From: Patescibacteria group bacterium
GTDB lineage: Bacteria; Patescibacteriota; Patescibacteriia; UM-FILTER-42-10
DNA: 64,000 bases
Assembly (NCBI GenBank): GCA_018825385.1
Contig: JAHJEX010000006.1
Coordinates: forward strand, 186 to 64,185
Reading direction: 5' to 3'
The notes beneath the pieces are model-generated. The model did not search any database and was not told the DNA's origin. It saw only the letters and a list, made by a program, of their open reading frames with translations. Below are positions 3,608 to 33,647 of the stretch, piece by piece. The position numbers were made by a program, and so were the translations under genes. Within the stretch, counting starts at the first letter, position 1, and each line of letters starts with the position of its first letter.

Positions 3608-3624
3608 AGATGATGTATTGTTAA

Positions 3625-4518: not shown

Positions 4519-4533
4519 TTTCTAAGGTCATAG

Positions 4534-4556
4534 AAGCGCGGAAAAGAATTCCGCGC
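4534..4556. other. perfect 9-bp inverted repeat hairpin (agcgcggaa-aagaa-ttccgcgct) between lemA and htpX
   Basis: Seen directly in the sequence. Possible weak terminator or operator; the flanking T-tract is poor. Confidence 0.4.
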
Positions 4557-4579
4557 TCCGTTCTAAATTAGAATAAAGA

Positions 4580-5137: not shown

Positions 5138-5176
5138 GAATATTCCTTTCTTTAATAATTCTTAGATTTTTTGTTT

Positions 5177-5713
5177 TTAAAGCCCAATTGAGAGTACTTT
5201 TATTTCGTAAGCCTGAAAGCTTGTCTTTCCATAAATATTTTCATCAGCCTCTGCAATAATATTATCTCCTATCTGGATATCACTTATTTGAATTGATTTT
5301 TCTCGTTCATATTCCTCACCCTCTTCCAGCGAATCAGGATTAACAGGCGGTTTCGTAATATCTATTTTGCGAAAAATAGTGCTTTCTGTAGTAGTAATAT
5401 TAACGGTCTTTTCAACGGAAATATCATTTTCAGCTACTTTTGCGGTAATATCGATCTGATTACCGTTTACTCCTGTTACCTGGCCTTTGTATGCAGTAAT
5501 GTTTTTTGCTTCTTCATACTCATAACCAGCTGGTTGTATGGCCACTTGCTGAGTGCTCGGCTCTACAGCCTTTTCATCCGCATTGCTTTGTCCCCATTGA
5601 TATCCCACTATTAAAGTGACGGTTGCAACAATCACAGTAATTATTGTAGCAGTGAGAGCTACTTTTTCACAACTTTTCAAAAAAGTACTTTGATTACTTT
5701 TGCTGGTTGACAT
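5177..5713 (-). CDS. hypothetical signal-anchored secreted protein
   Basis: Single N-terminal TM helix; the rest is hydrophilic. No recognisable motif. Confidence 0.5.
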   Translation of the reverse strand: MSTSKSNQSTFLKSCEKVALTATIITVIVATVTLIVGYQWGQSNADEKAVEPSTQQVAIQPAGYEYEEAKNITAYKGQVTGVNGNQIDITAKVAENDISVEKTVNITTTESTIFRKIDITKPPVNPDSLEEGEEYEREKSIQISDIQIGDNIIAEADENIYGKTSFQAYEIKVLSIGL

Positions 5714-5847
5714 TTCTTTTTACTTATGTTAGAATAACTAATATACTATTGGCTATTTTCAGATTATATTATATAATTTTATTGGATGTTTTGTCAAAGC
5801 GGGTGCAAATAGATGCGTGGTAATTTCTCCCTTTAACAGATAAAAAT

Positions 5848-7428
5848 ATGAAGAAAAAAAACAAAAAATCATTGATAGCAGCTTCCCTGAAGGCAAGTAA
5901 GGTAGCTGTTTTTTGTTTAATTGTAGCGGGTTTTGGCATAGTTGGAGGGATTATCACCCCAAATGTGTTTGCAGCTGTTTGGCAATCTCCAACCGTCACT
6001 CCTCCTGATTTCCCTGCAGAATTAGAACCTCCACTAAACACATCCGTATTTGTCCAAGAAAAGAAGGGCGGTCTTAGTGTAGCAACTCTAGACGGTAGTT
6101 TAGGTGTGGGAACAACAGTTGTGGGCACAAACAAGCTATATGTGAATGGTACTACTTATTTAGAAGGAAATGTCGGTATCGATGGGACTTTGAGTGTTTC
6201 AGCAACGGCAAGCGTTTTAGATTTACTGACTAACAGTGCAACAGTAGCCAATGATTTGAATGTTAATAGCGGATTGCTTAGCGTAAATAGCAGTAGTAAT
6301 TCTATTTTTATAAATGCCATAAATGATTTTGGGATAGTAAACATTGCTGCGGGAGATGAGTCAGGAATATTTGCAAAAAACAATTCTAGCAGTAACGCAG
6401 CTATACAAGGGGTTAACAATTCTTTGCTAGGAGGCACTGGTGTTTATGGATATGGTCAAGAATATGGTATATGGGGGGTCTCTTCTACAAAATACGGCGT
6501 GTTAGCTGATGCAAGAGATTTTGGAGCAGGAGGATTATATGCAAGAGGAGGAGACACTCGCTACGGAGCTGTTGGCCGGGGATTATATGGAGTTATAGGT
6601 TTGGATAATACAGAAGATGTTAATAACCCCACATTCAATGGTCCTGCTGAAACTCTAGCCGGATTGTTTGAGGGGTCTGTTGAAATAGTGCCAAGTGCCG
6701 GAGGAAATGCAGACTTGACTGTTAACAGTGATACGTTTGTTGTTGACTCTTCTACAAATAGAGTAGGAATTGGCACAAATAGTCCAATTGTTGCACTTCA
6801 TACCATAGGTGTTAGTGACCAATCAGCCGTTTACGCTCAGGCGGGAACAAACACAATGTGGCAAGATTATGATGGTCCCACTGCAACGGTGGCCGGTATA
6901 TATGGTGAAGGAGGAACTGTTACCTATGATGGTGCTGGAACAGGTTGGAATTTTGGCGTGTTTGGTAAGGCAGGTGATCCGGGGTCAGGAAGATCTGTAG
7001 GGATTATGGGATCCGATTTCAATGGAGTCGGCGATACATATGCCGGATGGTTTGATGGCAAAGTTGAAGTTGAAGGACAGGTGTCTGTCAGTGGTAAATT
7101 AAGCACCTTATCCAGTTTAGAAGTTGCTGGAGATATGGTTGGATACGGTGGTTTAAATCTCACTGGTGATATTGATATTTATGGAGATATCACATATTTA
7201 GGGAAACTAAGAATGGACGGCGGACTTCTGGTAATGCAAGGCGGAACGACATGTGATGTTGGACCTGACAACTATGCTGAAGGTACTATGTTTGTGTGTC
7301 ATTTCTGCCCAACCCCAACAGGACAGCGTAAGCATTCAGTAATGGCGAGAATGAATGGAGTATGGATCGATATTGGGTATACATTAGGGGATGCTTGTAA
7401 TGCTGGTCCTTATGTACCAGAAACATAG
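5848..7428 (+). CDS. secreted Gly/Asn/Thr-rich beta-repeat protein, paralog 1 (tail-fibre/adhesin-like)
   Basis: Signal peptide ending VFA|AVWQSP. Repeats LYVNGTTYLEGN, NRVGIGTNSP. C-terminal CxxC (VCHFCP). Roughly 60-70% identity to paralog 2, including near-identical nucleotide stretches. Confidence 0.75.
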   Translation: MKKKNKKSLIAASLKASKVAVFCLIVAGFGIVGGIITPNVFAAVWQSPTVTPPDFPAELEPPLNTSVFVQEKKGGLSVATLDGSLGVGTTVVGTNKLYVNGTTYLEGNVGIDGTLSVSATASVLDLLTNSATVANDLNVNSGLLSVNSSSNSIFINAINDFGIVNIAAGDESGIFAKNNSSSNAAIQGVNNSLLGGTGVYGYGQEYGIWGVSSTKYGVLADARDFGAGGLYARGGDTRYGAVGRGLYGVIGLDNTEDVNNPTFNGPAETLAGLFEGSVEIVPSAGGNADLTVNSDTFVVDSSTNRVGIGTNSPIVALHTIGVSDQSAVYAQAGTNTMWQDYDGPTATVAGIYGEGGTVTYDGAGTGWNFGVFGKAGDPGSGRSVGIMGSDFNGVGDTYAGWFDGKVEVEGQVSVSGKLSTLSSLEVAGDMVGYGGLNLTGDIDIYGDITYLGKLRMDGGLLVMQGGTTCDVGPDNYAEGTMFVCHFCPTPTGQRKHSVMARMNGVWIDIGYTLGDACNAGPYVPET

Positions 7429-7438
7429 AAAGATTTAA

Positions 7439-9010
7439 ATGAAAGAAGCACTTAAAAAGTTTAATAAAACAGCAACTATCAGTGTTTGCATTGCTCTATT
7501 ATGTCTTATTGCTGGATTCGGTGTGAATATTGTAATAGCGGCTACTTGGCAGGACCCAGCCGTAGCACCTCCTCATTTAGGCAGTTTGGAACCCGTTCTT
7601 AATACATCTCTATATGCTCAGGAGAAAATAGGGGGGCTTAATATAGCAACTCAAGACGGTAGTCTGGGTGTGGGTACTACAGTAGTGGGCACAAACAAAC
7701 TGTATGTGGGGGGCACTACTTTTTTGGAAGGAAATGCGGATATTAATGGCGATCTGAGTGTTTCAGCATCAACAAACGTTTTAGATTTACTGACTGACAG
7801 TGCAACAGTAGCCAATGATTTGAATGTTCATGGTGGCTTATTGAATGTTGATAGTGCAACTAATTCCATCTTTATTAACAGTATAAATAATTCAGGTTTG
7901 CTAAATGTAGAAGCAGAAGATGGATCAGGAATAGTTGCTATTAATAATTCTAACAGTAATGCAGCCATACAGGGAGTTAATGATTCTGTGGTAGGAGGGA
8001 CAGGCATTTATGGATATGGCTTGGAGTATGGAATATCCTCACGTAGTAGCACAGGATACGGGATCCTAGCAGATGCAAAGGATACTGGAATAGGGGGTGT
8101 ATTTGCAAGAGGAAGAGATACTGGTTATGGACTTATTGCTAGAGGATCGTACGGAGTTGTGGGGTTTGATAATACAGAAAACATAGACAACCCTGTTTTT
8201 AGCGGTCCTGGCACAACACTGGCAGGATTATTTGAAGGTTCTGTAGACATAATTCCAAGCGCTGGAGGAAATGCAGATTTGGGAGTAAATGCAAATACGC
8301 TTTTTGTAAGTTCTTTTACTGACAAAGTTGGAGTTGGTACAGGCAACCCTGCTACCAAACTACATATTTGGGGAGCAAGCGACCTTTCAGCAACGTATGC
8401 GAAGGCAGGGGTAAATACTGCAGTAGCGGAATATGATGGTCCCACTGCAACGGTGGCCGGTATATATGGCGAAGGAGGAACTGTTACCTATAGTGGCTCA
8501 GGAACGGGTTGGGATTTTGGCGTGTTTGGCAAGGCAGGTAACCCGGGGGTAGGCAGATCAGTGGGAGTGATGGGAGTAGAAGATGGAGGAGGTAGTGACC
8601 AAACTTTTGCAGGCTGGTTTGATGGAGATTTGATAATAGGTGATTCACTAGAAACGGGTGAATATACTTCAGCGGGTGAACTGGAAATTGCTGGTGATAT
8701 GATTGGGAATGGTGATCTCAGTCTTACGGGTAATATTGTCGGGCAAGAGGATATCGCGTATTTTGGGAAGCTAAAAATGACCGGGGGGCTTCCGTTTATA
8801 CATGGTAGATTATTTACATGTGATCTGGCTCCGACAAATTATGCTGAAGGTACTATGTATGTTTGTGCCTGGTGCCCTTCTCTAGAGGCAAGTCGTTTCT
8901 TTGCACTAAAGGTGCGTATGAATAGAACTTGGGTAACTCTTGGCTACACGAAAGGAGGTCGCTGTAGTGGATCTTACGACCCTGAAGTCCCGGTTGACTC
9001 GCTACCATAG
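7439..9010 (+). CDS. secreted Gly-rich beta-repeat protein, paralog 2
   Basis: Same architecture as 5848-7428. Shares IAATWQDP, LYVGGTTFLEGN, DGPTATVAGIYGEGGTVTY, VCAWCP. Confidence 0.75.
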   Translation: MKEALKKFNKTATISVCIALLCLIAGFGVNIVIAATWQDPAVAPPHLGSLEPVLNTSLYAQEKIGGLNIATQDGSLGVGTTVVGTNKLYVGGTTFLEGNADINGDLSVSASTNVLDLLTDSATVANDLNVHGGLLNVDSATNSIFINSINNSGLLNVEAEDGSGIVAINNSNSNAAIQGVNDSVVGGTGIYGYGLEYGISSRSSTGYGILADAKDTGIGGVFARGRDTGYGLIARGSYGVVGFDNTENIDNPVFSGPGTTLAGLFEGSVDIIPSAGGNADLGVNANTLFVSSFTDKVGVGTGNPATKLHIWGASDLSATYAKAGVNTAVAEYDGPTATVAGIYGEGGTVTYSGSGTGWDFGVFGKAGNPGVGRSVGVMGVEDGGGSDQTFAGWFDGDLIIGDSLETGEYTSAGELEIAGDMIGNGDLSLTGNIVGQEDIAYFGKLKMTGGLPFIHGRLFTCDLAPTNYAEGTMYVCAWCPSLEASRFFALKVRMNRTWVTLGYTKGGRCSGSYDPEVPVDSLP

Positions 9011-9037: not shown

Positions 9038-10549
9038 ATGAGAAAAATGATTACCAAACTAAATAAAACAGCAATTATCAGTGTTAGCATTGCAGTATTA
9101 AGTTTGGCGGTTGGTCTGGGGGTGAATATGGTATTTGCCGCCTGGACCACCCCTTCGGAATCCCCTCCGGGGGGTGATATTGCCGCTCCGATCAATGTTT
9201 CAGGTGCGGACCAAGGCAAAATTGGAGGCCTTCGATTGGGAAGTAGTAATTTACCACCTGCGCCGTATATGCTTTATGTTGATGGGGATGTGTTTGTGGA
9301 AGGGAGCATAGTACCCGGTTCAGCCGGCAGTTACACCATCGGAAATGAAACGGTGGGTTCTTGGGATGAACTTTGGCTGAATTCCGATGCTGACGGAGGA
9401 ATATTGGAAAATGGTATTCACTTCGCCGATCCTTCTGTTGGTATTAGGTATGATACGGCGAATAACAGATTTGATTTTTATAAGGATTCAGTTGTACTTT
9501 CAATAGGCGATAATGGCGATCTAAATACAGTGGGAGGTATTACTGCCGCAGGCGGGATGAATATTGATTCTAATACTTTGGTTGTAAATAATGCGAATAA
9601 CAGAGTTGGTGTTGGCACGGCTTCGCCTACTTATGCACTGGACATTGATTCCGGAGACATGAGTATTGCAAACGGCCGTCTTGTTATTGGTTCGCCGACA
9701 TTTCCTGATGCAGATTCAACACTTTATGTCGGAACCTCAGCAAATCCTGTTTCAACAGTTAGAGCAATAGCGGCCTATACTGACAAGGATACTCCTGAAG
9801 GCGCAGTATCAACAATCTATGGAAATAACATGGGAAATAACTGGAAAGCGGCGGTTGAAGGGGAGTCACATTTTGGTTATGGGATACTTGGAATAACTGA
9901 ATCTGGCGGCAGGGCAGGAGTGATCGGATTCAATTATGGTTACAGGCGACAAGGTGAAGCTGGTGAGCCAGTTGGAACTGATTTTGCTGCCGCGACAAAA
10001 GGGAGGAGTTGTGTGGATTCAAGTTGTGACGGTTTTGGCAGCGGTTGGTATGGTAGTACTACCGCAGCCAGACCTATCAGAGCTACAGGTGTATTTGGGG
10101 AAGGTTCTCATACAGATCTTTCCCAGGGTTATATTTATACATATGGCGTTTATGCAATGGCGGGGCGTGCCAGTGCCGGTTCAAGTTCCGAGCATATTTA
10201 TACATATGGACTTTATGCTACTGAAGGGGCAGAAACAAATGGCGGTGTGAGTTATGCAGGGTATTTTGCGGGCGACGTGCATGTAGAGGGCAATTTAACC
10301 ACAGATGCAGGATCCAGTGTTGGGATTGGTACGACAGAATTAACGGATGCCCTGCGTGTCGGAGGCAATTTACGGGTGGATAGTGAAGATACAGATCCTG
10401 CCTATTTGCAAATGGATACAAGAAGTGGAGCACCTGTTATCGCTGATTGTGATGCTGCAGATGAAATTGGAAGAATGGTTTTTGATACGAATAGCAATCT
10501 TTTGTATGTGTGCGATGATAGCGGATGGCTATCTGCTACACTCAACTGA
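9038..10549 (+). CDS. secreted Gly-rich beta-repeat protein, paralog 3 (divergent)
   Basis: Same N-terminal signal and AAWTTPSESPP start. NRVGVGTASPTYALDIDSG motif. Different C-terminus (CDAADEIGRMVFDTNSNLLYVCDDSGW). Confidence 0.7.
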   Translation: MRKMITKLNKTAIISVSIAVLSLAVGLGVNMVFAAWTTPSESPPGGDIAAPINVSGADQGKIGGLRLGSSNLPPAPYMLYVDGDVFVEGSIVPGSAGSYTIGNETVGSWDELWLNSDADGGILENGIHFADPSVGIRYDTANNRFDFYKDSVVLSIGDNGDLNTVGGITAAGGMNIDSNTLVVNNANNRVGVGTASPTYALDIDSGDMSIANGRLVIGSPTFPDADSTLYVGTSANPVSTVRAIAAYTDKDTPEGAVSTIYGNNMGNNWKAAVEGESHFGYGILGITESGGRAGVIGFNYGYRRQGEAGEPVGTDFAAATKGRSCVDSSCDGFGSGWYGSTTAARPIRATGVFGEGSHTDLSQGYIYTYGVYAMAGRASAGSSSEHIYTYGLYATEGAETNGGVSYAGYFAGDVHVEGNLTTDAGSSVGIGTTELTDALRVGGNLRVDSEDTDPAYLQMDTRSGAPVIADCDAADEIGRMVFDTNSNLLYVCDDSGWLSATLN

Positions 10550-10570: not shown

Positions 10571-12826
10571 ATGCAAAAACACAAAAAGAAATTAGTCATT
10601 TTCAGTACGGGGGTTTTTCTCTTAGTGTTAGTTGTTGTAGCGATCTTTAACATAACAAAGGTATCTGCGGATCAACCGCCTTGGGATGAAACAAATGTTT
10701 CCGGCTGGAACTGGTCGGGAATTGCAACCGAAAATAGTGCGCCAGGCGTTCCTGAATTCACTCACATCGGCTGGTTTAGCAATAACTGTTACAACTATTT
10801 TTCTACAGGCATGGAAAGCCGTTGTGGTGCTGACTTTGGAGTTAGAGTTGATCCCGTCACAGGCAACATTTCAGGTTATAGCTGGAATGGGATATTAGAT
10901 GACTCTGGTGCTGTAACAGGTGTTGGCTGGCTGGACTTTGACCCTCAACCTTTTCCTGGGCCACCATACTACGAAGCAAGAATTGAACCAGTTGGTTCAA
11001 CTTATGAAGGTCAAGTTTCAGGCTGGGCACGCATCAAATCAATAAAAGAACAGGGAGAATACCTAGGGTACGAAGATTGGGGATGGATTCTGTTAGGACC
11101 GGAGCCAGGTCCAAACCGCCAGTTCGGAGTAAATATAAACTCTACGACTGTGTCAGGATACGCATGGGCAGGCGGATATCTGGCTGGCGACCAATTACTT
11201 CCCGACCCTTATGAGAATGTTACTACCGGCTTGGGCTGGATCTCATTTGATACTGGCGATGCAAGTTATATTCTACCTGGTGAATTAGGTGAATTATCAG
11301 GTCATGCCTGGATGGGAAATTCTGATTCACTTGACCCGTCTTTTGACGCCAATATCGGCTGGGTTTCACTAAATTGTGGATCTGGTGGAACTACTGGGGA
11401 AGATATTTGTAAAGACACAAGTTACAAAGTACTTGTCAATAATTCAACGGGGGAAATATCTGGGTATGCTTGGATCGGAGAATCATCAGATGGTAATCCG
11501 ATTGGCTGGATAAATTTTGATCCTAATCCATATCCGGCAGGTCCAAACTATTCAGCAAAAGTTTTTTTAGAACAACAAACTGCAATCGACGATCCGTATG
11601 GTACCTATCAAAAGGGTGATGTAGTCGGATGGGCCCGACTAGTTTCATTAAAAAAAGAAGGAGCAAAGGGACATTTTGAAAATTGGGGCTGGGTAAAAAT
11701 GCATACAAGCGGTACTGAAGTTGAATACGGAGTATCCATGGATACTGATTCAGGGATTTTTGATGGATATGCTTGGTCAGGCGGGGGTACTGTATGTGTG
11801 GGCGCAGTATGTTATGATAACAGTGTGGGTTTAGGATGGATTTCCTTTCAGGACTATAGTGGTGTAAGTCAATTGCCACCGACCTACGTTGCACCGTTCC
11901 TAGAAACGGTGCAAGGGGACATTTATTCTAAAGTTGGGGTTGGATCTGGGGAAATATTCAGTCTTCCTACAAGCCCTTTGACTTCAGAGCTTTTCTATAA
12001 TTCGACCTTTTTAATACAGTCTGGTGGTGATATTGAACGCTATTCCAGTGAAAATGTTTCTGCTGATGATATTGAAGATTATTGGCGGAATTACCCCGAA
12101 TCTTTTGAACCTCCACTGGCTACTAACAAATATACAAATGTAATGGGCAAATTGGATGTTGACGGAATTACTTTTTCTGAGCAAGTATCCGCCGGTATTT
12201 TTGAAAATAAGTTTGGGACTATTGTTGAGGAATATTCAGGGGACACTTCAATAGAGGATTTATGGTTAGATGGTCTTTCTAAACTGCAGGGCAAGGTATA
12301 TTATATTCATGAGGGCGACCTCACCATAAATATACCAATGATAATTGATAATGGTAATGATGTTACTAATGATATTGCCTCAGGCACATTTATTGTTGAC
12401 GGCGACATGTTTATTGAAAAAGACATCACCTATGATTCACTCATTGTTGGAGAAAGTTATGTTGAGTTGGAAGATATTCCATCAGTTGTATGGATAGTAA
12501 AAGGAAATGTATATGTGAGTCCAAATGTGGCGGAAGTAGTGGGAAGTTTCGTAGTAGTTGGTAAAGAAAAAGACGGTGCATTAGAAGCTGGAACTGGTGA
12601 ATTTTATTCAGGAGCTGGAGATGTGAATTTAATAGTAAATGGATTGGTAGTCGCACATGAACTGTTCTTGCAAAGATCGGGAATTGGCACAGTCGAAAAT
12701 ATACAGGCCTCAGAGAGTATCTTCTATGATGGTAGGATAATCATTAATACACCGCCCGGGGTTGGAGATTTTGCAAAAGCACTACCTGTTGTCAGGGAAG
12801 TGGCGCCAATAGAGATTAGTCCATAA
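10571..12826 (+). CDS. large secreted protein with at least 8 copies of a novel G[YH]AW...GW[IL][SN]FD repeat and a C-terminal beta-rich domain
   Basis: N-terminal TM/signal. Repeats SGYSWNG...GVGWLDFDP, SGYAWAGG...GLGWISFDT, SGHAWMGN...IGWVSLNC, SGYAWIGE...IGWINFDP, DGYAWSGG...GLGWISFQD, interleaved with VSGWARI...WGW modules. Confidence 0.7.
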   Translation: MQKHKKKLVIFSTGVFLLVLVVVAIFNITKVSADQPPWDETNVSGWNWSGIATENSAPGVPEFTHIGWFSNNCYNYFSTGMESRCGADFGVRVDPVTGNISGYSWNGILDDSGAVTGVGWLDFDPQPFPGPPYYEARIEPVGSTYEGQVSGWARIKSIKEQGEYLGYEDWGWILLGPEPGPNRQFGVNINSTTVSGYAWAGGYLAGDQLLPDPYENVTTGLGWISFDTGDASYILPGELGELSGHAWMGNSDSLDPSFDANIGWVSLNCGSGGTTGEDICKDTSYKVLVNNSTGEISGYAWIGESSDGNPIGWINFDPNPYPAGPNYSAKVFLEQQTAIDDPYGTYQKGDVVGWARLVSLKKEGAKGHFENWGWVKMHTSGTEVEYGVSMDTDSGIFDGYAWSGGGTVCVGAVCYDNSVGLGWISFQDYSGVSQLPPTYVAPFLETVQGDIYSKVGVGSGEIFSLPTSPLTSELFYNSTFLIQSGGDIERYSSENVSADDIEDYWRNYPESFEPPLATNKYTNVMGKLDVDGITFSEQVSAGIFENKFGTIVEEYSGDTSIEDLWLDGLSKLQGKVYYIHEGDLTINIPMIIDNGNDVTNDIASGTFIVDGDMFIEKDITYDSLIVGESYVELEDIPSVVWIVKGNVYVSPNVAEVVGSFVVVGKEKDGALEAGTGEFYSGAGDVNLIVNGLVVAHELFLQRSGIGTVENIQASESIFYDGRIIINTPPGVGDFAKALPVVREVAPIEISP

Positions 12827-12953: not shown

Positions 12954-14063
12954 ATGGCACTATTTAGCTCAAAAAAAAGTTATATCGGAATTGATTTGGG
13001 AACATCCAGTATTAAGGTTGTTGAGTTAGAAAGCGAAAAGGGGAAACCGAAACTGATAACCTACGGTTTTGCTGAACAGTCGACAGATATTGTGAAAAGT
13101 GATTCTCAAGAAGTTCAAAAGGAAGTTGTGGCAACTTTAAAAGCAATAATGTCAAAGGCAAAAGTTACAACACCCAAAGCGATAGCAGCCTTGCCTAGTT
13201 TTGCGGTGTTCAGTTCAATTATTAGTTTGCCGGCTATGTCTAAAAAGGACTTAGTAGCTGCAGTCCGCTGGGAAGCAAAAAAGTTTGTTCCAATGCCCTT
13301 AGAGGAAATGATTCTAGACTGGAAAGTATTAGATGGTGGTAAGAGTGAGGAGAAAGATGGCAAGAAAGACAAAAAAAAGGAGAAAAAGGAGAACGCTATT
13401 CAACCCACAGGCGGATCAAAGAATTTCAAAGTACTGTTAACAGCTGCTCCCAAAACATTGGTCAAAAGGTATGTTGATATATTTAAGCAAGCAAACCTCC
13501 AATTGGTGAGTTTAGAAACTGAATCATTTGCCTTGGAGCGTTCGTTAATTGGGAATGATCGTTCAGCAACTATGATTGTAGATATTGGTGCTATTGCCTG
13601 CGATATTAGTGTTATTGTAGATGGCGTACCAATTCTGAATCGCAGTGTTGATATTGGGGGCAATACAATAACAAAGGCAATCGCAAATAGTCTTAATGTA
13701 AATCTAGAACGCGCAGAACAATTTAAGAGGGACTTTGGTATTTCTGGAGCTGGTGATTCATCGCAGGGACAAATTCCACGGACAATTGAATTTATTGTTA
13801 GTTCAATAGTCAATGAGATAAAATTTGTTCTCAACTTGTATCAGAATCAAGGAGAAAAACCTATTGAAAAAGTTGTACTAGCCGGTGGCTCTTCCTTTCT
13901 TCCTAATCTTACTAAATATTTAGAAAAAGTACTTAATATCAAAGTGTTTATCGGGGATCCCTGGGCACGCGTTGTGTATCCAATTGATTTGAAGCCAGTA
14001 TTGCAAGAACTAGGTCCTCGGTTTGCTGTTTCAATAGGGTTAGCAATGAGAGAAATAATTTAA
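12954..14063 (+). CDS. pilM: type IV pilus assembly ATPase-like protein PilM
   Basis: Actin-like fold start YIGIDLGTSSIKVVELE. PilM length and position ahead of pilN/pilO. Contains a Lys-rich internal insertion. Confidence 0.85.
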   Translation: MALFSSKKSYIGIDLGTSSIKVVELESEKGKPKLITYGFAEQSTDIVKSDSQEVQKEVVATLKAIMSKAKVTTPKAIAALPSFAVFSSIISLPAMSKKDLVAAVRWEAKKFVPMPLEEMILDWKVLDGGKSEEKDGKKDKKKEKKENAIQPTGGSKNFKVLLTAAPKTLVKRYVDIFKQANLQLVSLETESFALERSLIGNDRSATMIVDIGAIACDISVIVDGVPILNRSVDIGGNTITKAIANSLNVNLERAEQFKRDFGISGAGDSSQGQIPRTIEFIVSSIVNEIKFVLNLYQNQGEKPIEKVVLAGGSSFLPNLTKYLEKVLNIKVFIGDPWARVVYPIDLKPVLQELGPRFAVSIGLAMREII

Positions 14064-14072
14064 AATCATCTA

Positions 14073-15248
14073 ATGGATATAAATCTTCTAAAAGATAAAG
14101 AGGCGATAGGAGAAAAGTCAAGAAAAAAGACCGGAGGTGTTGGTATTGAGTTGACCCGACCGAATAAAGAAAAAGATGAAACAAAAAAACGCGTGAAAAA
14201 AGGTGGAATGTCCGAATTCTTTGCCAAGCTTTTTAAGAGAAAGAAAAAAGAGAGAATTCTATCACAGAAGGTCGTGAAAAAAGAAGAAAAAGTAAAGAAG
14301 ATAAGCCACGAAAAGATAAAAGAATCAAAAAAAATCCAGTCAGCTGGTGTATTGCAAGTTGAAATTGACAAAAAAACAAGTGCTGCAGAGAAATTAGTTA
14401 CTGATGAACCAAGTCCAACTAATGTGGAAAAGCGAGAGTTAAAAAGCATAGACAGAGATATCAGCGAAATGGAATCCAAACCTGAAATCCTAGAAAAAGA
14501 GGAAGATAAAAAACCCAGAAAAAAGTTCTTTACCTGGTCCTCTCCGGAAGATGATTCAAAAAACAAAAAAAATATTGTCGCTAATAAAAAGGAAGATACG
14601 AAAAATGGCATTGATAAAAAACTGACGAAAGTAATACCATTAGAAGAGAAAATACAATCACTGGATGTGAACCTTATTCCTGATGATGTTTTAGTTAAGC
14701 TTGAACCAAAATCAAAGCTTAGACAATTAGGGCTGGCGGTGATTATTATCGCTGTCCTAGTTGGTCTGATATATGGATATATGATGTATAGAGAATCAAA
14801 GATAGAAGGTGATATACAAGTAGTGGTGGTCGAAATCGAAAGCGTTGAACAGGAACTAAACAATCTAGGATATATCAGGGAAAGCGCATTGGTGTTAAAA
14901 AAGCAGATTGATTCTGTATCACAGTTGTTGAATGTTCACATTTACTGGTCGCAGTTTTTAGAATATCTTGAAAAATATACCTTGCCGGATGTTTATTACA
15001 AGAACTTAGCGGCAACAAAAGCAGGAATAGTAACATTATCAGCCTCAGCAGTAGATTTAGCGACTCTCGCTGATCAATACTTAATATTTCAAAATGCGTC
15101 TGATTTTGTAGAAAGTGTAACAATTGAAAGCGCGGTATCAGCACAGAATACTGAAGACAATGAAATAGGCTCAGGTGCAGTGGATTTCAATATCTCGTTA
15201 ACTATAAATCCTGACACTTTTTTCCTTAAAGATGATTTGCCGTTATGA
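14073..15248 (+). CDS. pilN: PilN-like bitopic pilus assembly protein with ~210-aa Lys/Glu-rich N-terminal extension
   Basis: Single TM helix (LGLAVIIIAVLVGLIYGYMMY) followed by a ~150-aa periplasmic domain. Position between pilM and pilO. The N-terminal half is low-complexity and K/E-rich. Confidence 0.6.
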   Translation: MDINLLKDKEAIGEKSRKKTGGVGIELTRPNKEKDETKKRVKKGGMSEFFAKLFKRKKKERILSQKVVKKEEKVKKISHEKIKESKKIQSAGVLQVEIDKKTSAAEKLVTDEPSPTNVEKRELKSIDRDISEMESKPEILEKEEDKKPRKKFFTWSSPEDDSKNKKNIVANKKEDTKNGIDKKLTKVIPLEEKIQSLDVNLIPDDVLVKLEPKSKLRQLGLAVIIIAVLVGLIYGYMMYRESKIEGDIQVVVVEIESVEQELNNLGYIRESALVLKKQIDSVSQLLNVHIYWSQFLEYLEKYTLPDVYYKNLAATKAGIVTLSASAVDLATLADQYLIFQNASDFVESVTIESAVSAQNTEDNEIGSGAVDFNISLTINPDTFFLKDDLPL

Positions 15249-15871
15249 GTTATTCATTTAAAAATAAAGTTTTTTCATTCATTGTAAAATACTTCAGATT
15301 TATTCTAGGGGCAGTTGTTATATTTCTTCTGGTTCTAAGTACTTACCTCATAATTTTGCCTAAATACAAGCAGATAGCTGATGAAGGATATCTAGACTAC
15401 GAACAGAAACAACAAACTCTCGAAGCGAAGAAAAATGAATTAAGAGAATTGCAGAAACTGCAGGAAGAACTTTCACAAATAACCACGGTTGAGATGGAGC
15501 GTTTAGAGAGGATATTACCTTCCTCTAAAGATATTCCGGATATCTTTTTACAAATGGAAAGTCTGGCGAGAGAAAGTGGACTGACAGTGAGTAGGGTAAG
15601 TATTGCAGAAACAAGTGGACGATCGAGTAATTCCAATTCTTCTGCTGCAAAAAATAGTGAAACAAATGTGAATCAGGCCGGTGGCATTCAGACGATTACC
15701 ATTTCACTGTCCGTAGAAGGAAATACTACTTATGATTCATTAAAAATACTGTTAGATAACATTGAAGACAATATGCGTATTGTTGATCTTGATTCACTTT
15801 CATATTCGCCACCAGAAACAGAAGGGGACAGCTCATTTTCAGTGAATCTTGCTACTTATTATCTGGAATAA
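15245..15871 (+). CDS. pilO: PilO-like pilus assembly protein
   Basis: N-terminal TM helix, then a coiled-coil (QKQQTLEAKKNELRELQKLQEEL), then a C-terminal domain. The 4-nt overlap with the upstream gene suggests translational coupling. Confidence 0.65.
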   Translation: MSYSFKNKVFSFIVKYFRFILGAVVIFLLVLSTYLIILPKYKQIADEGYLDYEQKQQTLEAKKNELRELQKLQEELSQITTVEMERLERILPSSKDIPDIFLQMESLARESGLTVSRVSIAETSGRSSNSNSSAAKNSETNVNQAGGIQTITISLSVEGNTTYDSLKILLDNIEDNMRIVDLDSLSYSPPETEGDSSFSVNLATYYLE

Positions 15872-15883
15872 TAATATTTATAT

Positions 15884-16753
15884 ATGCTAGTCCAAAAAAA
15901 ATCACAGAAAAGAAATATAATCCTTGGGGCAATCTTTGCTGTTTTGATTGTTGTAATGATATTTGTTTTAAATATGGGTCCCAGTGGTTCTGACGATGAC
16001 TTATTGAATGGCGTGTTGAATAATGAGAGTGTAGTAATATTACCGGCTGTTGTAGATATTGACAGTGCTTTTTTTGGAAAAAAGGATGTGGTTGGATTGC
16101 GTGATAGAAGTGGGCAACGCTATGTTGGACAATTTGCAAGTACTCCCACAGATTCCCAAATCACTCCAGCACCGGAAGGGGCATATATACTAAATATACA
16201 AGTCGGTGAAAAACTGATACTTTATTGGGATTTTAGTTCTAGATATGTTGCAGTTAAAATATATAGATCAGAAACGCAAGAGAAAAAAGGGGAATTGATT
16301 GCGGAAGTGTCCAATAGAAACTACTACCAGGATACTGGCATTGAAAATGGAGTTTACTACTATTACACGCTTATTGCAGTAGGGGCTAATGGTCAGGAAT
16401 CTGATGATTCTGTTAAAATGACCGGCAGTCCAACTGATATTTTTGCTCCACAAAGCCCAGTGGGATTAGCAGTTGCAGATTCAACGGATGGAAATCAAGT
16501 ACAAATTTCTTGGGTTGATCCTAAGGATAATGATTTTGCGTATGTTCGTATCTATCGCTCACAGATTGAAGGTAGTCTGGGAACTTTAATACTAGATAAA
16601 GCGGTTGAAAACAATACCTACGTGGACAAAAATGTTCTTGAAGATGTTGAATATTTTTATACTATTACATCGGTGGATACCTCAGGAAATGAATCTGAAA
16701 AATCGTTGTTACCTGTTGGTGGGAATAACAATCCGTTTCAACCATTATTTTAA
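15884..16753 (+). CDS. membrane-anchored protein with two fibronectin type III-like domains, pilus-associated by context
   Basis: N-terminal TM helix. Two FN3-like modules (LILYWDFSS...YYYYTLIAVGANGQES; VQISWVDP...YFYTITSVDTSGNES). Confidence 0.6.
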   Translation: MLVQKKSQKRNIILGAIFAVLIVVMIFVLNMGPSGSDDDLLNGVLNNESVVILPAVVDIDSAFFGKKDVVGLRDRSGQRYVGQFASTPTDSQITPAPEGAYILNIQVGEKLILYWDFSSRYVAVKIYRSETQEKKGELIAEVSNRNYYQDTGIENGVYYYYTLIAVGANGQESDDSVKMTGSPTDIFAPQSPVGLAVADSTDGNQVQISWVDPKDNDFAYVRIYRSQIEGSLGTLILDKAVENNTYVDKNVLEDVEYFYTITSVDTSGNESEKSLLPVGGNNNPFQPLF

Positions 16754-16770
16754 TTAGCAATAGATCATCA

Positions 16771-18537
16771 ATGGCAATCCCAAAACCAAACACAAATCAA
16801 AGCGAAGCAGTTGATCCTCTAGTAGAGGCCTTACTTGAAGGTAAATATATCAGCCAGACACAATACGCAGATGCACAAGAAAAGAGCAAAGCCTTGGCCG
16901 TATCTGTTCTTCAGGTTATCTCTGAGGAAAATATGGTTCCAGATGAAGAATTTGCTAAAGTAAAAAGCAAAGTATATGGAGTTCCTTTCATGGACCTATT
17001 TGGCAAGATGATTCGTTCAGATATTTTAAACATAATCTCACACGAACTCGCTCAAAACTACAAAATGGTTGCTTTCAATAAGGAAGCCAATGAGGTAAGT
17101 ATTGCTATGCTTCAGCCAAACGATTTTCATGCACTGGAAGCAGTAGAATTTTTAGCTAGGAAGAATCAATACAAAATAAAATATTATGTTACCTCGCAAG
17201 GAGCTTTTAACCATGTTCTTAAGCAATATGCAACGCTATCAGAAGAAGTGGAGCAAGCATTAAAAGGAACAGAAGCGGAAGCAAAAGCTGCTGAAGAAGG
17301 TATAGAATTAGCTGAAAAAGGACTGGAAGAGGTCATTAAAAAAGCACCAGTATCCAAAATGGTTTCAGTTATATTAAGGCATGCAGTTGAAGGAAGAGCA
17401 TCAGATGTCCATATCGAGCCGGTAGGAAATGAAACACGCGTACGTTATCGTATTGATGGTGTATTACATACGTCTTTGATTCTGCCAAAACATGTGCATC
17501 CATCTGTAGTGGCTCGTATTAAAGTGCTTTCTAATTTGAAAATTGATGAAACGAGAATACCTCAGGACGGTCGTTTTCGAATGAGCATTGATGGAAAGGA
17601 TATAGACTATCGTGTTTCAACGTTGCCACTTATTAATTATGAAAAAGTGGTAATGCGTATTCTAGACACAACTGAGGGAGGTAAGAAACTAGAAGATTTG
17701 GGTTTTGACGGTAGGAATGCAGAAGTGATGAGAGAAAATATCAAAAAAAGCCATGGAATGTTCTTGGTAACCGGTCCAACAGGTTCTGGTAAGTCAACAA
17801 CACTCTATTCTATTTTAACCGTTATGAATCAGGAAGGAGTGAATATAGTTACCTTGGAAGATCCGGTAGAATATTATTTAGCTGGAATTAATCAATCCCA
17901 AATCAATGCTGACGTTGGATTAACATTTGCTCGTGGTTTGAGGGCAATCTTGCGTCAGGATCCAGACGTAATCATGGTTGGAGAAATACGTGATAATGAA
18001 ACAGCAGAACTTGCAGTACACGCAAGTTTGACAGGCCACATAGTGCTTTCTACCCTACATACTAACGACGCGTTTGGTGCTATACCCAGATTAATTGACA
18101 TGAAGATTGAGCCCTTTCTAGTATCTTCATCTACAAATGTTATTATTGCCCAGAGACTTGTTCGGAGTATTTGTACTTATTGTAAGGCGGAAACGACAGT
18201 GCCAGAAGAATTAGAAAATGAAATATGGGTTGAATTAGAAAAGATTCCAAAGGCAGCGATTCCCGAAGACGTAAATGCCACCCGTCCTCTAAAGTTCTAC
18301 AAAGGAAAAGGATGTGCTCGTTGTGAGCATACTGGTTATAAGGGAAGACTGGCAATCTCAGAAGTATTAGAAATCAATGATGTGTTAGAAAAAATAATTA
18401 TGTCTGGAAGCAACACTGATGAAATAAAAGAAGAATTCAAAAAGCAAGGAATGATTTCACTTAAAGAAGATGGCATAATTAAAGCACTTCAGGGCAAAAC
18501 TACTATTCAGGAAGTCTGGAATGTTACAAGAGAATAA
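16771..18537 (+). CDS. pilB: type IV pilus assembly (extension) ATPase PilB / GspE family
   Basis: N-terminal GspII-like domain. Walker A GPTGSGKSTT. Walker B/Asp box DPDVIMVGEIRD. Tetracysteine motif CTYC...CARC. Confidence 0.9.
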   Translation: MAIPKPNTNQSEAVDPLVEALLEGKYISQTQYADAQEKSKALAVSVLQVISEENMVPDEEFAKVKSKVYGVPFMDLFGKMIRSDILNIISHELAQNYKMVAFNKEANEVSIAMLQPNDFHALEAVEFLARKNQYKIKYYVTSQGAFNHVLKQYATLSEEVEQALKGTEAEAKAAEEGIELAEKGLEEVIKKAPVSKMVSVILRHAVEGRASDVHIEPVGNETRVRYRIDGVLHTSLILPKHVHPSVVARIKVLSNLKIDETRIPQDGRFRMSIDGKDIDYRVSTLPLINYEKVVMRILDTTEGGKKLEDLGFDGRNAEVMRENIKKSHGMFLVTGPTGSGKSTTLYSILTVMNQEGVNIVTLEDPVEYYLAGINQSQINADVGLTFARGLRAILRQDPDVIMVGEIRDNETAELAVHASLTGHIVLSTLHTNDAFGAIPRLIDMKIEPFLVSSSTNVIIAQRLVRSICTYCKAETTVPEELENEIWVELEKIPKAAIPEDVNATRPLKFYKGKGCARCEHTGYKGRLAISEVLEINDVLEKIIMSGSNTDEIKEEFKKQGMISLKEDGIIKALQGKTTIQEVWNVTRE

Positions 18538-18569
18538 ATAATAAAACAATAGAATTAAAAGAAACAACT

Positions 18570-18965
18570 ATGCAAACAACTGGAGCTGAATTAAATAAAA
18601 AGAAGATAGTTCTTGTGGAGGATGATTCTTTTTTGGCAGGGATGTATGTGTCAAAGTTGAATTTAGAGGACTTTGAAGTAAAATTAGCGGAGAACGGAGA
18701 AGATGGTTTGAAACTGGCTACAGCAGAAATACCTGATTTGATTTTGCTGGATATTCTTTTGCCCAGAATGGATGGATTTGAGGTTTTAAAGAAGCTAAAG
18801 CAAAATCCATCAACTGCAGATATTCCAGTTATTTTGCTCACGAATTTAGGTCAAAAAAAGGATGTTGATCGAGGCTTGGCCTTGGGCGCGAAGGACTATC
18901 TTATTAAGGCGCACTTTATGCCTAATGAGGTTATTGCTAAAATAAAGAAAATTCTTAAAACCTAA
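18570..18965 (+). CDS. stand-alone response-regulator receiver (CheY-like) protein
   Basis: Acidic pocket VEDD. Phospho-acceptor Asp in ILLDILLP. T/K motifs ILLTNLGQ...DYLIKA. No output domain. Confidence 0.85.
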   Translation: MQTTGAELNKKKIVLVEDDSFLAGMYVSKLNLEDFEVKLAENGEDGLKLATAEIPDLILLDILLPRMDGFEVLKKLKQNPSTADIPVILLTNLGQKKDVDRGLALGAKDYLIKAHFMPNEVIAKIKKILKT

Positions 18966-18969
18966 ATTA

Positions 18970-20064
18970 TTGCAACAACCAGAATCGACTCTCAGGACGA
19001 ATGAGCAGATAGAGATAAATCGAATATTAACATCAGTGGCAGAGTATAATGCTTCTGATCTTCATCTTTCTGTTGGTAATGTTCCTACTGTCAGAATTGA
19101 CGGAGAACTAACTCCATTACGTGAAGAAAAGGTAATTACTCCAGATTTTTTGGAAAAACTAAAGCTTTTTCTTTTAGATGAAAAGCAAAGAGAAATACTT
19201 GAAACTGAAAGAGAGATAATCTTTTCATATAATTTTCAAAATCGTATTAGATTCAAAATTAATCTCTTTTATCAAGAAGGATATTTATCTGCTTCACTTC
19301 GACTTATAGCTTCAGATACCAAAACATTAGTTGAGCTTGGTCTTCCAAAAGCAGTTGAGCAGGTTACAAAACTTAACAAAGGTTTGGTAATAGTTTGCGG
19401 ACCGTTTGGTTCAGGACGCAGTTCTACTCTTGCTGCAATTTTGAACGAAATTAACGATAATAGGAATGAACATATTCTAACCATAGAGAAACCGATTGAA
19501 TATGTGTTTATGGACAACAAGAGTATAGTTGAACAAAGAGAAGTAGGAAGAGATACGCGTTCATTTGAAAGAGCTTTAAAGTCAGCTTTCCAGGAAGATA
19601 TAGATGTCATTCTAGTGGGGGATTTAAAGAACAAGGAAGTGATTAAAAGTGTCTTGGATCTTTCTGAGGGGGGGCGATTAGTATTTGGCGGGATGGATAC
19701 AGACTCTTCAATTAAAACTATTGAAAAACTAATAAACAGTTTTGATGCACAAGAACAACAACAAACAAGAGTTCAGCTTTCGGAGGTATTAGCAGGAATA
19801 ATTGTGCAAAGATTGTTGCCAAGAGTGGGTGGGGGCAGAATACTAGTGGCAGAAATACTTATTCCAACCCCTCCAGTGCGAGCTGTAATACGAGAAGGTA
19901 ATCTTCTTCAGCTAAACAATGTACTCCAGACTTCAAGAGAAGAAGGAATGATATCCCTAGACAGATCGCTGGCAGAATTGGTTAAGACTGGTGAAATATT
20001 ATTAGATAGTGCACTACAATATGCAGTTGATAAAAATAATTTACAAATGTTAGCACAACGCTAA
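18970..20064 (+). CDS. pilT: PilT-family retraction ATPase paralog with atypical Walker A (GSGRSS) and Walker B (VGDLKN)
   Basis: PilT N-terminus (ASDLHLSVGNVPTVRIDGE). P-loop GPFGSGRSSTL (Lys replaced by Arg). DVILVGDLKNKE (Glu replaced by Asp). TTG start. Confidence 0.8.
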   Translation: MQQPESTLRTNEQIEINRILTSVAEYNASDLHLSVGNVPTVRIDGELTPLREEKVITPDFLEKLKLFLLDEKQREILETEREIIFSYNFQNRIRFKINLFYQEGYLSASLRLIASDTKTLVELGLPKAVEQVTKLNKGLVIVCGPFGSGRSSTLAAILNEINDNRNEHILTIEKPIEYVFMDNKSIVEQREVGRDTRSFERALKSAFQEDIDVILVGDLKNKEVIKSVLDLSEGGRLVFGGMDTDSSIKTIEKLINSFDAQEQQQTRVQLSEVLAGIIVQRLLPRVGGGRILVAEILIPTPPVRAVIREGNLLQLNNVLQTSREEGMISLDRSLAELVKTGEILLDSALQYAVDKNNLQMLAQR

Positions 20065-20075
20065 ATAAATTTATT

Positions 20076-21284
20076 ATGGCAGTTTACGATTACAAAGCAA
20101 AAGATGTTGAAGGAAACTCTGTCACCGGAGCAGTAGAAGCTTCTTCAGAAACAGTCGCGGTTGACATGTTAAAAGATAAGGATCTAATAGTCCTTTCTTT
20201 GAGCGAGCGAAGAAAACGCACACTCTTTCAAGCAAGTCTCGGGTTTCTAAATAGAGTTCCCAGAAAAGAGGTTGTAATTTTCTCCAGACAGTTAGCGGTT
20301 ATGATCTCTGCTACGGTACCAATTGTAAAAGCGTTGACTATTCTTACAAAACAAACAGAAAATATAACTTTCAAAATCATTGTTTCGGAAATTGCTGACG
20401 AAGTTGATGGAGGTGCAAGGTTGTCTGACACTTTAGGACGCTATCCGCAAGTATTTGATGATTTTTTCGTGTACATGATTAAATCAGGTGAAACAACCGG
20501 AAAATTAGACGAGACCCTAAATTATCTTGCCGATCAAAAAGAAAAAGATTACGATCTTACATCAAAGATCAAGGGAGCAATGATTTATCCTGTATTTATT
20601 TTGGGCGCCTTGGTAGTTGTAGGTATAGTTATGATGATCTTTGTAATTCCTCAGCTAACAGCCGTACTTGAAGAGGCAGGCACGGAACTGCCATGGGCAA
20701 CAAGAATGCTTATGGCGACTAGTGATTTTCTACAGAATTATTGGTGGTCTTTAATAGTAATTGCGATTGTCAGTACATTATCGTATCGTTTGTATTATCG
20801 AACCTCAACCGGGAAAAAACAAATTGATAAAATAAAACTAAGAATCCCAGTATTTGGCAACATTTACAAAAAAATATATCTGACGCGTTTTGCACGCAGT
20901 TTTTCTAATCTCATTGCCAGTGGTATTCCTTTGTCTAGAGCATTGGGGATCGTTGCCGATGTAATAGGTAATCATACATATAAGGAAATTACGCTAGAGA
21001 CAATCAAAGAGGTTGAAGATGGAAATTCAGTGTCAACTGTTTTCTTAAAACACAAAGAAGTTCCCGTAATGCTGTCACAAATGTTAACTGTGGGTGAACA
21101 AACCGGCCGGCTAGATAAAATATTAGCAAAGCTTGCTGATTTTTATGCTAAAGAAGTGGAGAATTTAGTTGCAAATCTTGTGAGCCTTATTGAGCCTATG
21201 ATTATCGCGCTGTTAGGTGTTGCTGTTGCTGTGTTGGTTGTATCCATATTGTTGCCTCTATACAGTCTTTCAACAGCTATTTAG
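20076..21284 (+). CDS. pilC: type IV pilus inner-membrane platform protein PilC (GspF family)
   Basis: Two GspF repeats, three TM segments, 402 aa. Position after pilT. Confidence 0.9.
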   Translation: MAVYDYKAKDVEGNSVTGAVEASSETVAVDMLKDKDLIVLSLSERRKRTLFQASLGFLNRVPRKEVVIFSRQLAVMISATVPIVKALTILTKQTENITFKIIVSEIADEVDGGARLSDTLGRYPQVFDDFFVYMIKSGETTGKLDETLNYLADQKEKDYDLTSKIKGAMIYPVFILGALVVVGIVMMIFVIPQLTAVLEEAGTELPWATRMLMATSDFLQNYWWSLIVIAIVSTLSYRLYYRTSTGKKQIDKIKLRIPVFGNIYKKIYLTRFARSFSNLIASGIPLSRALGIVADVIGNHTYKEITLETIKEVEDGNSVSTVFLKHKEVPVMLSQMLTVGEQTGRLDKILAKLADFYAKEVENLVANLVSLIEPMIIALLGVAVAVLVVSILLPLYSLSTAI

Positions 21285-21367
21285 AGATTCTCGTCTTGTC
21301 ATTTTCATTTACTATTTGTCATTTTTCTGCTATAATAATTCGTGTTGATAACTAGCAAACTGTTATA

Positions 21368-21399
21368 TTGACAAAATGGTAAAATTGTAGTAGTATAAT
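21368..21399 (+). promoter_or_regulatory. candidate sigma70-like promoter for the pilin gene (TTGACA ... TATAAT; 20-nt spacer or alternative TAGTAT at 17 nt)
   Basis: Perfect -35 and -10 hexamers are visible but the spacing is non-optimal. Upstream direct repeats ttgtcatttt x2 at 21296-21330. Strong SD GGAGGTG lies before the ATG at 21460. Confidence 0.35.
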
Positions 21400-21459
21400 A
21401 GCATAACTAATTGATTACTTAACAATTAAAATAAAATAGAAAGGAAGGGAGGTGAACAA

Positions 21460-21924
21460 ATGAGAAACAAAAAAGGTTTTACATTAATCGAGTTGTTAGT
21501 TGTTATCGCAATTATTGGTCTTTTAGCCACAATTGCAGTAGTAGCATTAAACAGCGCAAGAACAAGTTCACGAGATGCTAAGAGGATTGCTGATGTCCGA
21601 CAGGTACAAACCGGGTTGGAGTTATATTTTAACGCCGAAACGGATTACCCAACTTGTACTACAGCTGCTACCGTCGCGAGTTTGGACGGTGCTGGTTGCG
21701 CCGATGGGATAACAACTTACGTTTCTGGAATCTCCAATGTTTATGATCCCTCGGGTGATGCAACTACCGCTGCTTGTCTTGTCGATGCTACCGGTACGTG
21801 TAACTATTCTTATCAAGGAGTTGCGGAGGGAGACAGCTATACCATTTTATTCTGGCTCGAAGGTGATTCCGGATCATTGACAGGAGGAGAGATTCATACA
21901 GCGAGTGACGCAGGTATACTTTAA
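21460..21924 (+). CDS. pilA: type IV major pilin (prepilin with class III signal peptide)
   Basis: MRNKKG|FTLIELLVVIAIIGLLATIAV is a canonical prepilin cleavage/methylation motif. 154 aa. Cys pairs in the C-terminal half. Confidence 0.9.
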   Translation: MRNKKGFTLIELLVVIAIIGLLATIAVVALNSARTSSRDAKRIADVRQVQTGLELYFNAETDYPTCTTAATVASLDGAGCADGITTYVSGISNVYDPSGDATTAACLVDATGTCNYSYQGVAEGDSYTILFWLEGDSGSLTGGEIHTASDAGIL

Positions 21925-32853: not shown

Positions 32854-32855
32854 TT

Positions 32856-33632: not shown

Positions 33633-33647
33633 TAGATCAATAGTTTC

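Follow-up and report, generated by a model that had tools for sequence, protein, structure and literature searches.

Relation to known envelope and pilus proteins

Several modules anchor bacterial proteins to the cell envelope in fixed copy number; SLH and CWB2 occur as three copies, and the choline-binding CW_binding_1 hairpins and the GW modules of Listeria are of the same kind. In the Candidate Phyla Radiation (CPR)/Patescibacteria, whose genomes are reduced, type IV pili are one of the few machines to be conserved throughout. They are required for the attachment of Saccharibacteria to their hosts (PMC11623550), and the mechanism by which the fibre passes and is fixed in the secretin-less CPR envelope is not known (PMC6744442). 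We analyzed a stretch of 64,000 nucleotides (the window; contig JAHJEX010000006.1, positions 186 to 64,185) from a Patescibacteria group bacterium, in which a gene at 10571-12826 encodes a 751-residue exported protein directly ahead of type IV pilus assembly genes. The protein represents a Patescibacteria-specific family that combines one or two Trp-rich modules with a DUF7305-like β-solenoid and is genetically locked to pilMNO-pilB. We infer that it acts on the outer side of the membrane, in concert with the pilus machine.

Compared with the SLH, CWB2, CW_binding_1 and GW modules, the module of our protein is built on the same plan. It consists of short aromatic/Gly-rich units, a fixed number of which makes one domain, and it is terminal, beside the export signal, with diverse passengers in many surface proteins. 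Unlike those modules, it is made of four units of ~45 amino acids (aa) differentiated as A-B-C-D, and it has so far been found only in Patescibacteria. It also bears no sequence relationship to them: CW_binding_1, CW_binding_2 and the Listeria GW module matched neither the whole protein (E ≤ 1) nor 27 isolated modules (Pfam, E ≤ 10), for which reason a choline-binding repeat was rejected. In its working principle, the module may also be likened to Trp-rich lectins.

Like the AMIN domain of PilQ and the LysM domains of TsaP and FimV, the protein appears to be extracytoplasmic, is genetically tied to pilMNO, and could tether the machine to the wall. Taken as a whole, it would play the part that peptidoglycan-binding components play in diderm type IV pilus machines. 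It differs from PilQ, TsaP and FimV in having no secretin, AMIN or LysM domains, and its gene lies upstream of pilM, not downstream of pilP; a secretin (PilQ) was rejected, as Pfam gave no match to the Secretin, AMIN or N0 domains. With the tip adhesins PilY1/PilC it shares a large size, a non-pilin character, an association with type IV pili and a repeat-built domain. An assignment to PilY1/PilC was nevertheless rejected, since Pfam gave no match and the gene stands with pilMNO-pilB, not with the minor pilins (32856-35044). In Thermus thermophilus, the competence pilin ComZ contains a β-solenoid insertion (PDB 6qvi; PMC6561018). Our protein likewise has a predicted β-solenoid domain and a tie to the type IV pilus, but the match to ComZ was non-significant, our protein has no pilin N-terminus, and ComZ has no Trp-rich modules.

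A conserved gene at the head of the pilMNO-pilB operon

The reading frame opens with ATG and runs uninterrupted through 751 codons and a stop codon. An earlier note on this DNA had described a 751-aa protein here, and re-checking returned exactly the same boundaries. It was the sole open reading frame (ORF) of the window to match the hidden Markov model (HMM) of the module, that of the C-terminal domain, or the C-terminal tail motif described below. The note had also placed the gene correctly, between three paralogous ORFs and pilM, but had missed its invariant place at the head of the pilMNO-pilB operon, which is the strongest functional clue. The gene and those that follow it are:

10571..12826 (+), complete ORF, 751 aa (ORF translation)
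12954..21924 (+), type IV pilus assembly genes, whole block downstream of the gene (Pfam matches, conserved order)
12954-14063 (+), PilM (Pfam PF11104, E 4e-45)
14073-15248 (+), PilN-like protein (position in the pilus gene order; no Pfam match)
15245-15871 (+), PilO (Pfam/gene order)
15884-16753 (+), 289-aa protein, p289 (conserved after PilO; no Pfam match)
16771-18537 (+), PilB (Pfam/gene order)
18970-20064 (+), PilT (Pfam/gene order)
20076-21284 (+), PilC (Pfam/gene order)
21460-21924 (+), pilin with an N_methyl motif (Pfam)

The order from our gene through PilM, the PilN-like protein, PilO and p289 to PilB was found on one strand in ten other loci (L001-L004, L008, L009, L011-L014), whose homologues were 27-69% identical to our protein. 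Counting our own, all 11 loci thus had a family gene upstream of pilM on the same strand; they come from Kerfeldbacteria, Parcubacteria and unclassified Patescibacteria. It was directly adjacent to pilM in nine of the ten other loci, with two genes between in L008, and the upstream flanks were wholly different among distant family members. A contig scan with a narrower alignment of the C-terminal domain gave four close loci. The family comprises about 40 members, each with at least one four-unit module, a conserved linker and a β-solenoid C-terminal domain; our protein belongs to it by full-length homology and by its position upstream of pilM. Consensus scanning detected no terminator-like site in the gap before pilM, and the best plus-strand promoter-like site lay at 5707-5735, upstream of the first paralog.

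The N-terminus carries an export signal:

10571..10669 (+), aa 1-33 (MQKHKKK, a 19-aa hydrophobic stretch, then VSA↓DQ)

Read by eye, this is probably a cleavable Sec signal peptide, and similar AxA-type ends of the N-terminal signal were seen in homologues. The alternative would be a signal anchor; the earlier label "signal-anchored" may be wrong. Neither a class III (prepilin) motif nor an N_methyl match was found in the protein by regular-expression scan and Pfam. On these grounds, and with the N-terminus ending in VSA↓DQ, a pilin or minor pilin was rejected.

Two copies of a four-unit module

Residues 38-439 are rich in Gly (15.5%) and Trp (5%), whereas the C-terminal part contains only 1% Trp. 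Eight units follow one another at a spacing of 46-57 aa, each with an SG[YHW]xW strand (starting at aa 44, 101, 149, 195, 243, 297, 351 and 398) and, 8-32 residues later, GW[ILVF]. The protein contains this paired motif eight times, whereas 2000 shuffled versions of its sequence averaged 0.0055 occurrences and never had more than one, and an iterated unit HMM recovered the same eight units (independent E value, i-E, 5e-9 to 1e-14). The repeat is therefore real, and the count of at least eight proposed earlier is confirmed. Self-BLASTP of the protein detected no internal repeats because the units are too divergent, which made HMM and regular-expression methods necessary.

The units are of four types. 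Unit A reads GW.W ... IGW.S.NC and carries a Cys-closed loop; unit B is SGY.W ... GW(I/L)(D/N)FDP.P(Y/F)P..P.Y.A; unit C is (S/V)GWAR, a helix, then WGW(I/V); and unit D is GYAW.GG ... GLGWISF. They are arranged as A-B-C-D, A-B-C-D. The two alternating sub-motifs of the earlier description do not hold, as the GWAR...WGW type occurs only in units 3 and 7. Aligned with each other, the two halves (aa 38-235 and 238-439) are in register and 35% identical (E 3e-30), and the whole-module profile matches the first with i-E 4.6e-45 and the second with i-E 2e-49. As delimited by the unit HMM and the module profile, they are:

10682..11275 (+), module 1 (aa 38-235), units A-B-C-D at aa 38-91, 94-138, 144-187 and 188-235
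11282..11887 (+), module 2 (aa 238-439), units A-B-C-D at aa 238-287, 290-331, 346-388 and 391-439

Almost all of 62 related proteins have either four or eight units, and the few with three probably contain one unit below threshold. Single-module orthologues linked to pilus genes (P0013-P0017) align to aa ~195-395 of the N-terminal part of our protein; their module is equivalent to module 2, into which most invariant columns of the family fall. Two orthologues, otherwise 64-67% identical and encoded on contigs of 277 and 468 kb, carry an insertion of ~370 aa exactly between units 4 and 5 (P0003, aa ~241-611; P0004, aa ~243-594), to which Pfam gave no match. The two modules are thus separable. 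Taken together, the counts of four or eight, the single-module orthologues and the position of the insertion argue for a four-unit domain of about 150-200 aa, of which our protein, as judged from sequence, has two independent copies, and against an open array or an eight-unit ring. The array of 50-60-aa modules envisaged earlier is thereby replaced by a fixed domain duplicated once.

The pairs Cys73/Cys85, Cys269/Cys280 and Cys409/Cys414 are conserved or lost as pairs, as expected for disulfides in an exported protein, and they are probable disulfides.

Structure prediction left the fold of the module less clear than its boundaries. The AlphaFold2 (AF2) model of aa 36-436, based on a 55-sequence alignment, had a mean predicted local distance difference test score (pLDDT) of 66.9 and a predicted template modelling score (pTM) of 0.47. 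Confidence was high in units B and C of both modules (blocks of 85-95) and poor in unit A and between the modules. According to DSSP, each unit consists of a short strand (the "YGV.I" element) followed by a β-hairpin, and in unit C an α-helix lies inside the hairpin loop. Because the number of differentiated units is fixed at four, we suppose that the domain is closed and pseudo-four-fold. Foldseek searches of the repeat model against the PDB and BFVD gave no usable match, and mean-field direct coupling analysis of 207 module instances (effective number ~197) was dominated by gap/indel couplings and gave no usable contacts.

The earlier note raised a β-propeller or a β-solenoid for the repeats; the eight units would then form one continuous structure, an eight-bladed propeller or an open solenoid. 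Units of ~45-50 aa with three or four short strands do have the size of a propeller blade, and the top PDB matches of the repeat model in Foldseek were all β-propellers, but with probability < 0.1 and a template modelling (TM) score of ~0.1. Moreover, the blade HMMs of WD40, Kelch, FG-GAP, hemopexin and NHL matched neither the whole protein nor the 27 isolated modules. Most relatives, including the pilus-linked P0013-P0017, have just four units, the insertion in P0003 and P0004 splits unit 4 from unit 5, and unit C contains a helix; the fixed count of four also speaks against an open solenoid. We therefore consider a continuous eight-unit structure improbable, and a single eight-unit ring was rejected on the evidence of the four-unit relatives and the insertion. 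A closed four-unit domain, perhaps with a four-bladed propeller-like fold, is possible. As for the β-solenoid, AF2 places it in the C-terminal domain instead of the repeats.

An uncurated module family in Patescibacteria

The whole protein returned nothing from Pfam (E ≤ 1), NCBIfam (E ≤ 1) or the PDB sequences (E ≤ 10), and the 27 isolated modules gave only chance-level matches in Pfam at E ≤ 10. Mo-co_dimer, the best "consistent" family, was hit by 3 of 27 modules at E ≥ 0.055, which is noise. Canonical relatives with the motif GWAWSENIGWISF had no module match in Pfam or NCBIfam, the module profile had none among PDB sequences, and a PHROGs search produced matches at chance level only, as did searches with the C-terminal domain family. 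A match to the "SGYYWS...WIGYI" segment of antibody heavy-chain variable domains was dismissed as coincidental.

When 1.84 billion cluster representatives were searched exhaustively with HMMER, the 173-position module profile matched 8,775 of them at E ≤ 1e-3, of which 6,126 passed E ≤ 1e-10 and 848 passed E ≤ 1e-30. Every match with a named source came from Patescibacteria/CPR (Kerfeldbacteria, Pacebacteria, Parcubacteria, Peregrinibacteria or "Patescibacteria group"). The earlier view that the repeat cannot be assigned to a named family was thus upheld by Pfam, NCBIfam and the PDB sequences. Its description as previously unrecognised is right as far as curated libraries go, and wrong in that thousands of protein clusters carry the module. 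We regard the module as a new domain and our protein as the representative of a new protein family, both of a familiar general kind.

Among the 150 best matches, most have the module starting at residue ~25-45, right behind an N-terminal hydrophobic segment; in some giant proteins (P0085, P0109, P0111, P0130) it is found at the C-terminal end. Its partner domains include PKD, Ig_Rha78A_N, Laminin_G_3, Flg_new, Lcl_C and FG-GAP. Since the single-module proteins P0036, P0042 and P0041 have no pilin genes adjacent, the module itself is a general surface-protein element and not pilus-specific. Binding to a surface or to carbohydrate, as the note had proposed, is plausible because the protein is exported, its Cys residues are paired, Trp and Gly are conserved, and the module occurs with PKD, Ig, LamG and FG-GAP partners.

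The C-terminal domain and its relation to DUF7305

The C-terminal part (aa 437-751, 315 aa) is a separate conserved region in about 40 proteins, always behind one or two modules, in agreement with the distinct domain of ~300 aa recognised earlier. It comprises three segments:

11879..12145 (+), linker region, aa 437-525 (PTYVAPFLET..GDIYS...YNSTFLIQSGG...NKYTNVMGKLD; conserved in alignment A5)
12146..12778 (+), predicted β-solenoid core, aa 526-736 (AF2 model)
12779..12823 (+), C-terminal tail ALPVVREVAPIEISP, a variant of (L)P(L)P.W[RK]E[VI][AS]P-COOH

The linker is well conserved, yet the AF2 pLDDT was below 50 over most of it. Residues 526-736 were modelled (19 sequences) with pLDDT mostly 80-98 as stacked short regular strands, and the core is confidently predicted to be a β-solenoid. 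Foldseek gave no significant PDB match for this model; the best was ComZ (6qvi; E 0.036, probability 0.8, TM 0.2), followed by the DUF3494 ice-binding β-helices.

A profile of the C-terminal domain family detected the protein P0079 with E 7.5e-5 in 5.8 billion sequences. P0079 exceeds the Pfam threshold for DUF7305 (PF23981) with 40.2 bits at aa 366-459, and hhalign of A5 against P0079 gave 97.5% probability and E 5e-12 over 152 columns (aa 351-516), spanning the DUF7305 region. Like our C-terminal domain, that of P0079 is a solenoid followed by a REVAP-type tail. In contrast to DUF7305 members, our protein lies below the Pfam threshold: its C-terminal domain had no DUF7305 match at E ≤ 1 (gathering threshold, 27 bits). 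One of 13 family members had a match (E 0.0012). P0078 scored 18.7 bits. Because our protein falls below this threshold and the family profile nevertheless matches P0079, sequence comparison points to a distant relative of DUF7305, not a member. A literature search on DUF7305 returned nothing relevant and no described function. P0079 has the solenoid without the module, and its locus is not a pilus locus.

Two pilM-adjacent orthologues of ~1,310 aa, P0012 (L004, 2992-6918) and P0023, have an FG-GAP/VCBS (integrin-like propeller) region fused at the N-terminus. The FG-GAP matches lie in this separate region, ahead of the eight units and the solenoid, and the fusion hints at an adhesive function in some lineages.

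The tail motif ended no more than three residues from the C-terminus in 106 of 225 fetched Patescibacteria secreted proteins, compared to 6 of 2413 internal control windows. Carriers include P0020, P0024, P0027, P0033, P0037-P0040, P0045, P0048, P0051-P0053, P0056, P0059, P0060, P0079, P0080, P0082 and others, and the tail is also present where a protein lacks the Trp-rich module. In some variants (PLPEYKEVPP), a hydrophobic or amphipathic extension of ~20 aa follows the motif. No NCBIfam model covers the motif, and a literature search gave no relevant result. The recurrent tail is possibly a signal, so far undescribed, for sorting, processing or attachment.

Possible role at the pilus

The explanation that we favour, tentatively, is that the protein is an exported, disulfide-stabilised accessory subunit, envelope-tethering or guiding, of the secretin-less CPR type IV pilus machine. 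The Trp-rich modules outside the membrane would bind a glycopolymer, be it of the cell's own wall or S-layer or of a partner cell. The β-solenoid, together with the conserved linker, would touch PilN, PilO and p289 in their extracytoplasmic parts, or else the pilus fibre, and the protein would thereby hold the pilus in place, or guide it, as it passes the envelope of an organism without the PilQ secretin. We favour a tethering role because the gene travels with the alignment-complex genes and not with minor pilins, because the protein has no prepilin signal, because a separate cluster of minor pilins and a large ORF can supply the tip complex, and because PilQ is absent from CPR genomes (PMC6744442). 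That second cluster (32116-37288) contains:

32116-32853 (+), prepilin peptidase PilD
32856-33632, 33648-34289 and 34289-35044 (+), three minor-pilin-like genes with N_methyl motifs (prepilin regular expression, Pfam)
35045-37288 (+), 747-aa ORF with a pilin-like hydrophobic N-terminus and no Pfam match

The prepilin expression matched the window only at 21460, 32856 and 34289; Pfam added a weaker N_methyl match at 33648 (E 0.011, below cutoff). The 747-aa ORF may be a large tip or priming subunit. With PilD, the three minor pilins and this ORF in one cluster, the priming/tip complex is encoded elsewhere than beside our gene.

The main rival function would be that of a pilus-associated or free surface adhesin or lectin, whose modules recognise glycans of the host or partner cell and are displayed in the manner of PilY1/PilC or ComZ, with no part in the assembly machine. 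The co-occurrence of the module with PKD, Ig, Laminin_G_3, Flg_new and Lcl_C, the FG-GAP repeats fused to P0012 and P0023, the adhesin-like paralogs immediately upstream of the gene, and the tip pilin ComZ as best, though non-significant, fold match of the C-terminal domain (PMC6561018) are all in its favour. With neither a class III signal peptide nor N_methyl, however, the protein could not polymerise into the fibre as a pilin; it is linked to pilMNO/pilB, and the minor-pilin cluster 20 kb away has its own pilin-like ORF of 747 aa. Its sequence is also well conserved, with many invariant columns at the 27-69% identity given above. Host-recognition proteins would be expected to diverge faster than that. 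An adhesin or lectin of this kind thus seems a possible but doubtful assignment. We regard it as quite unlikely that the protein is a generic secreted envelope protein that owes its position to shared regulation or genomic hitch-hiking and has no pilus role. Thousands of module-bearing proteins do occur outside pilus loci, as does P0079 with its solenoid, but all 11 loci keep the same-strand gene upstream of pilM down to 27% identity while the flanks change completely, and the combination of module and C-terminal domain was found only in that position.

Several points weigh against an accessory pilus subunit. Contact with Pil proteins and glycan binding are both putative. The same module is present on thousands of proteins outside pilus loci and alone says nothing on pili, and its fold has no firm model (pLDDT 67, pTM 0.47; no structural match above TM ~0.15). 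The FG-GAP fusions of P0012 and P0023 and the weak resemblance to ComZ fit an adhesin equally well. Co-transcription with the pilM genes is putative, proposed from the consensus scans. Finally, the type IV pilus loci of Saccharibacteria are listed without such a gene (PMC11623550); the family is therefore not universal but lineage-restricted within CPR.

A conserved, exported and unannotated protein always encoded upstream of pilM in Kerfeldbacteria/Parcubacteria-type lineages is a concrete candidate for fixing the pilus without a secretin. More than 6,000 protein clusters (E ≤ 1e-10) without a Pfam, NCBIfam or PDB entry represent a sizeable annotation gap, and curating the module and the recurrent tail would label a large share of the "hypothetical" surface proteins of CPR. 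The module also offers structural biologists a defined target of ~170 aa. A broader proposal, which we put forward with reserve as conceivable though rather unlikely, is that the module is a major undescribed anchoring or lectin domain, that with the W[KR]EVAP-COOH tail it forms a CPR-specific system of surface export and display, and that the pilM-upstream family is the missing envelope-spanning or wall-tethering component of the secretin-less CPR type IV pilus, the organelle with which these episymbionts attach to hosts.

Neighbouring genes

Within the operon, the PilN-like protein has a Lys/Glu-rich N-terminal extension of ~200 aa. Homologues of p289 gave only faint Fn3-type matches, and p289 could be a PilP analogue. 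The two genes that intervene before pilM in L008, a Parcubacteria locus, are an unannotated gene and a signal peptidase I (S26) at 9629-10204. Another signal peptidase I (S26), at 4208-4762 of L007, lies within a run of small unannotated genes beside a module-bearing protein.

Directly upstream of our gene, in the same orientation, are the three paralogs:

5848-7428, 7439-9010 and 9038-10549 (+), paralogous Gly-rich exported proteins of ~500 aa

None of them had a Pfam or NCBIfam match. They show a short, weak match to the phage family phrog_5906 around an "...N.VGVGT..P...L.I" element, which may resemble phage fibre proteins. The paralogs are present in L002 and L011-L014 and absent in L001, L003, L004, L008 and L009; they are accessory and confined to close relatives. 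The G+C content of their region is 0.42-0.45, compared to ~0.36 in the flanks. Beyond them, a divergent block encoding ClpB, an M48 peptidase, LemA and a 178-aa protein (1112-5713, −) lies beside the pilus operon, and the same block is conserved next to that operon in L002, L004 and L011-L014.

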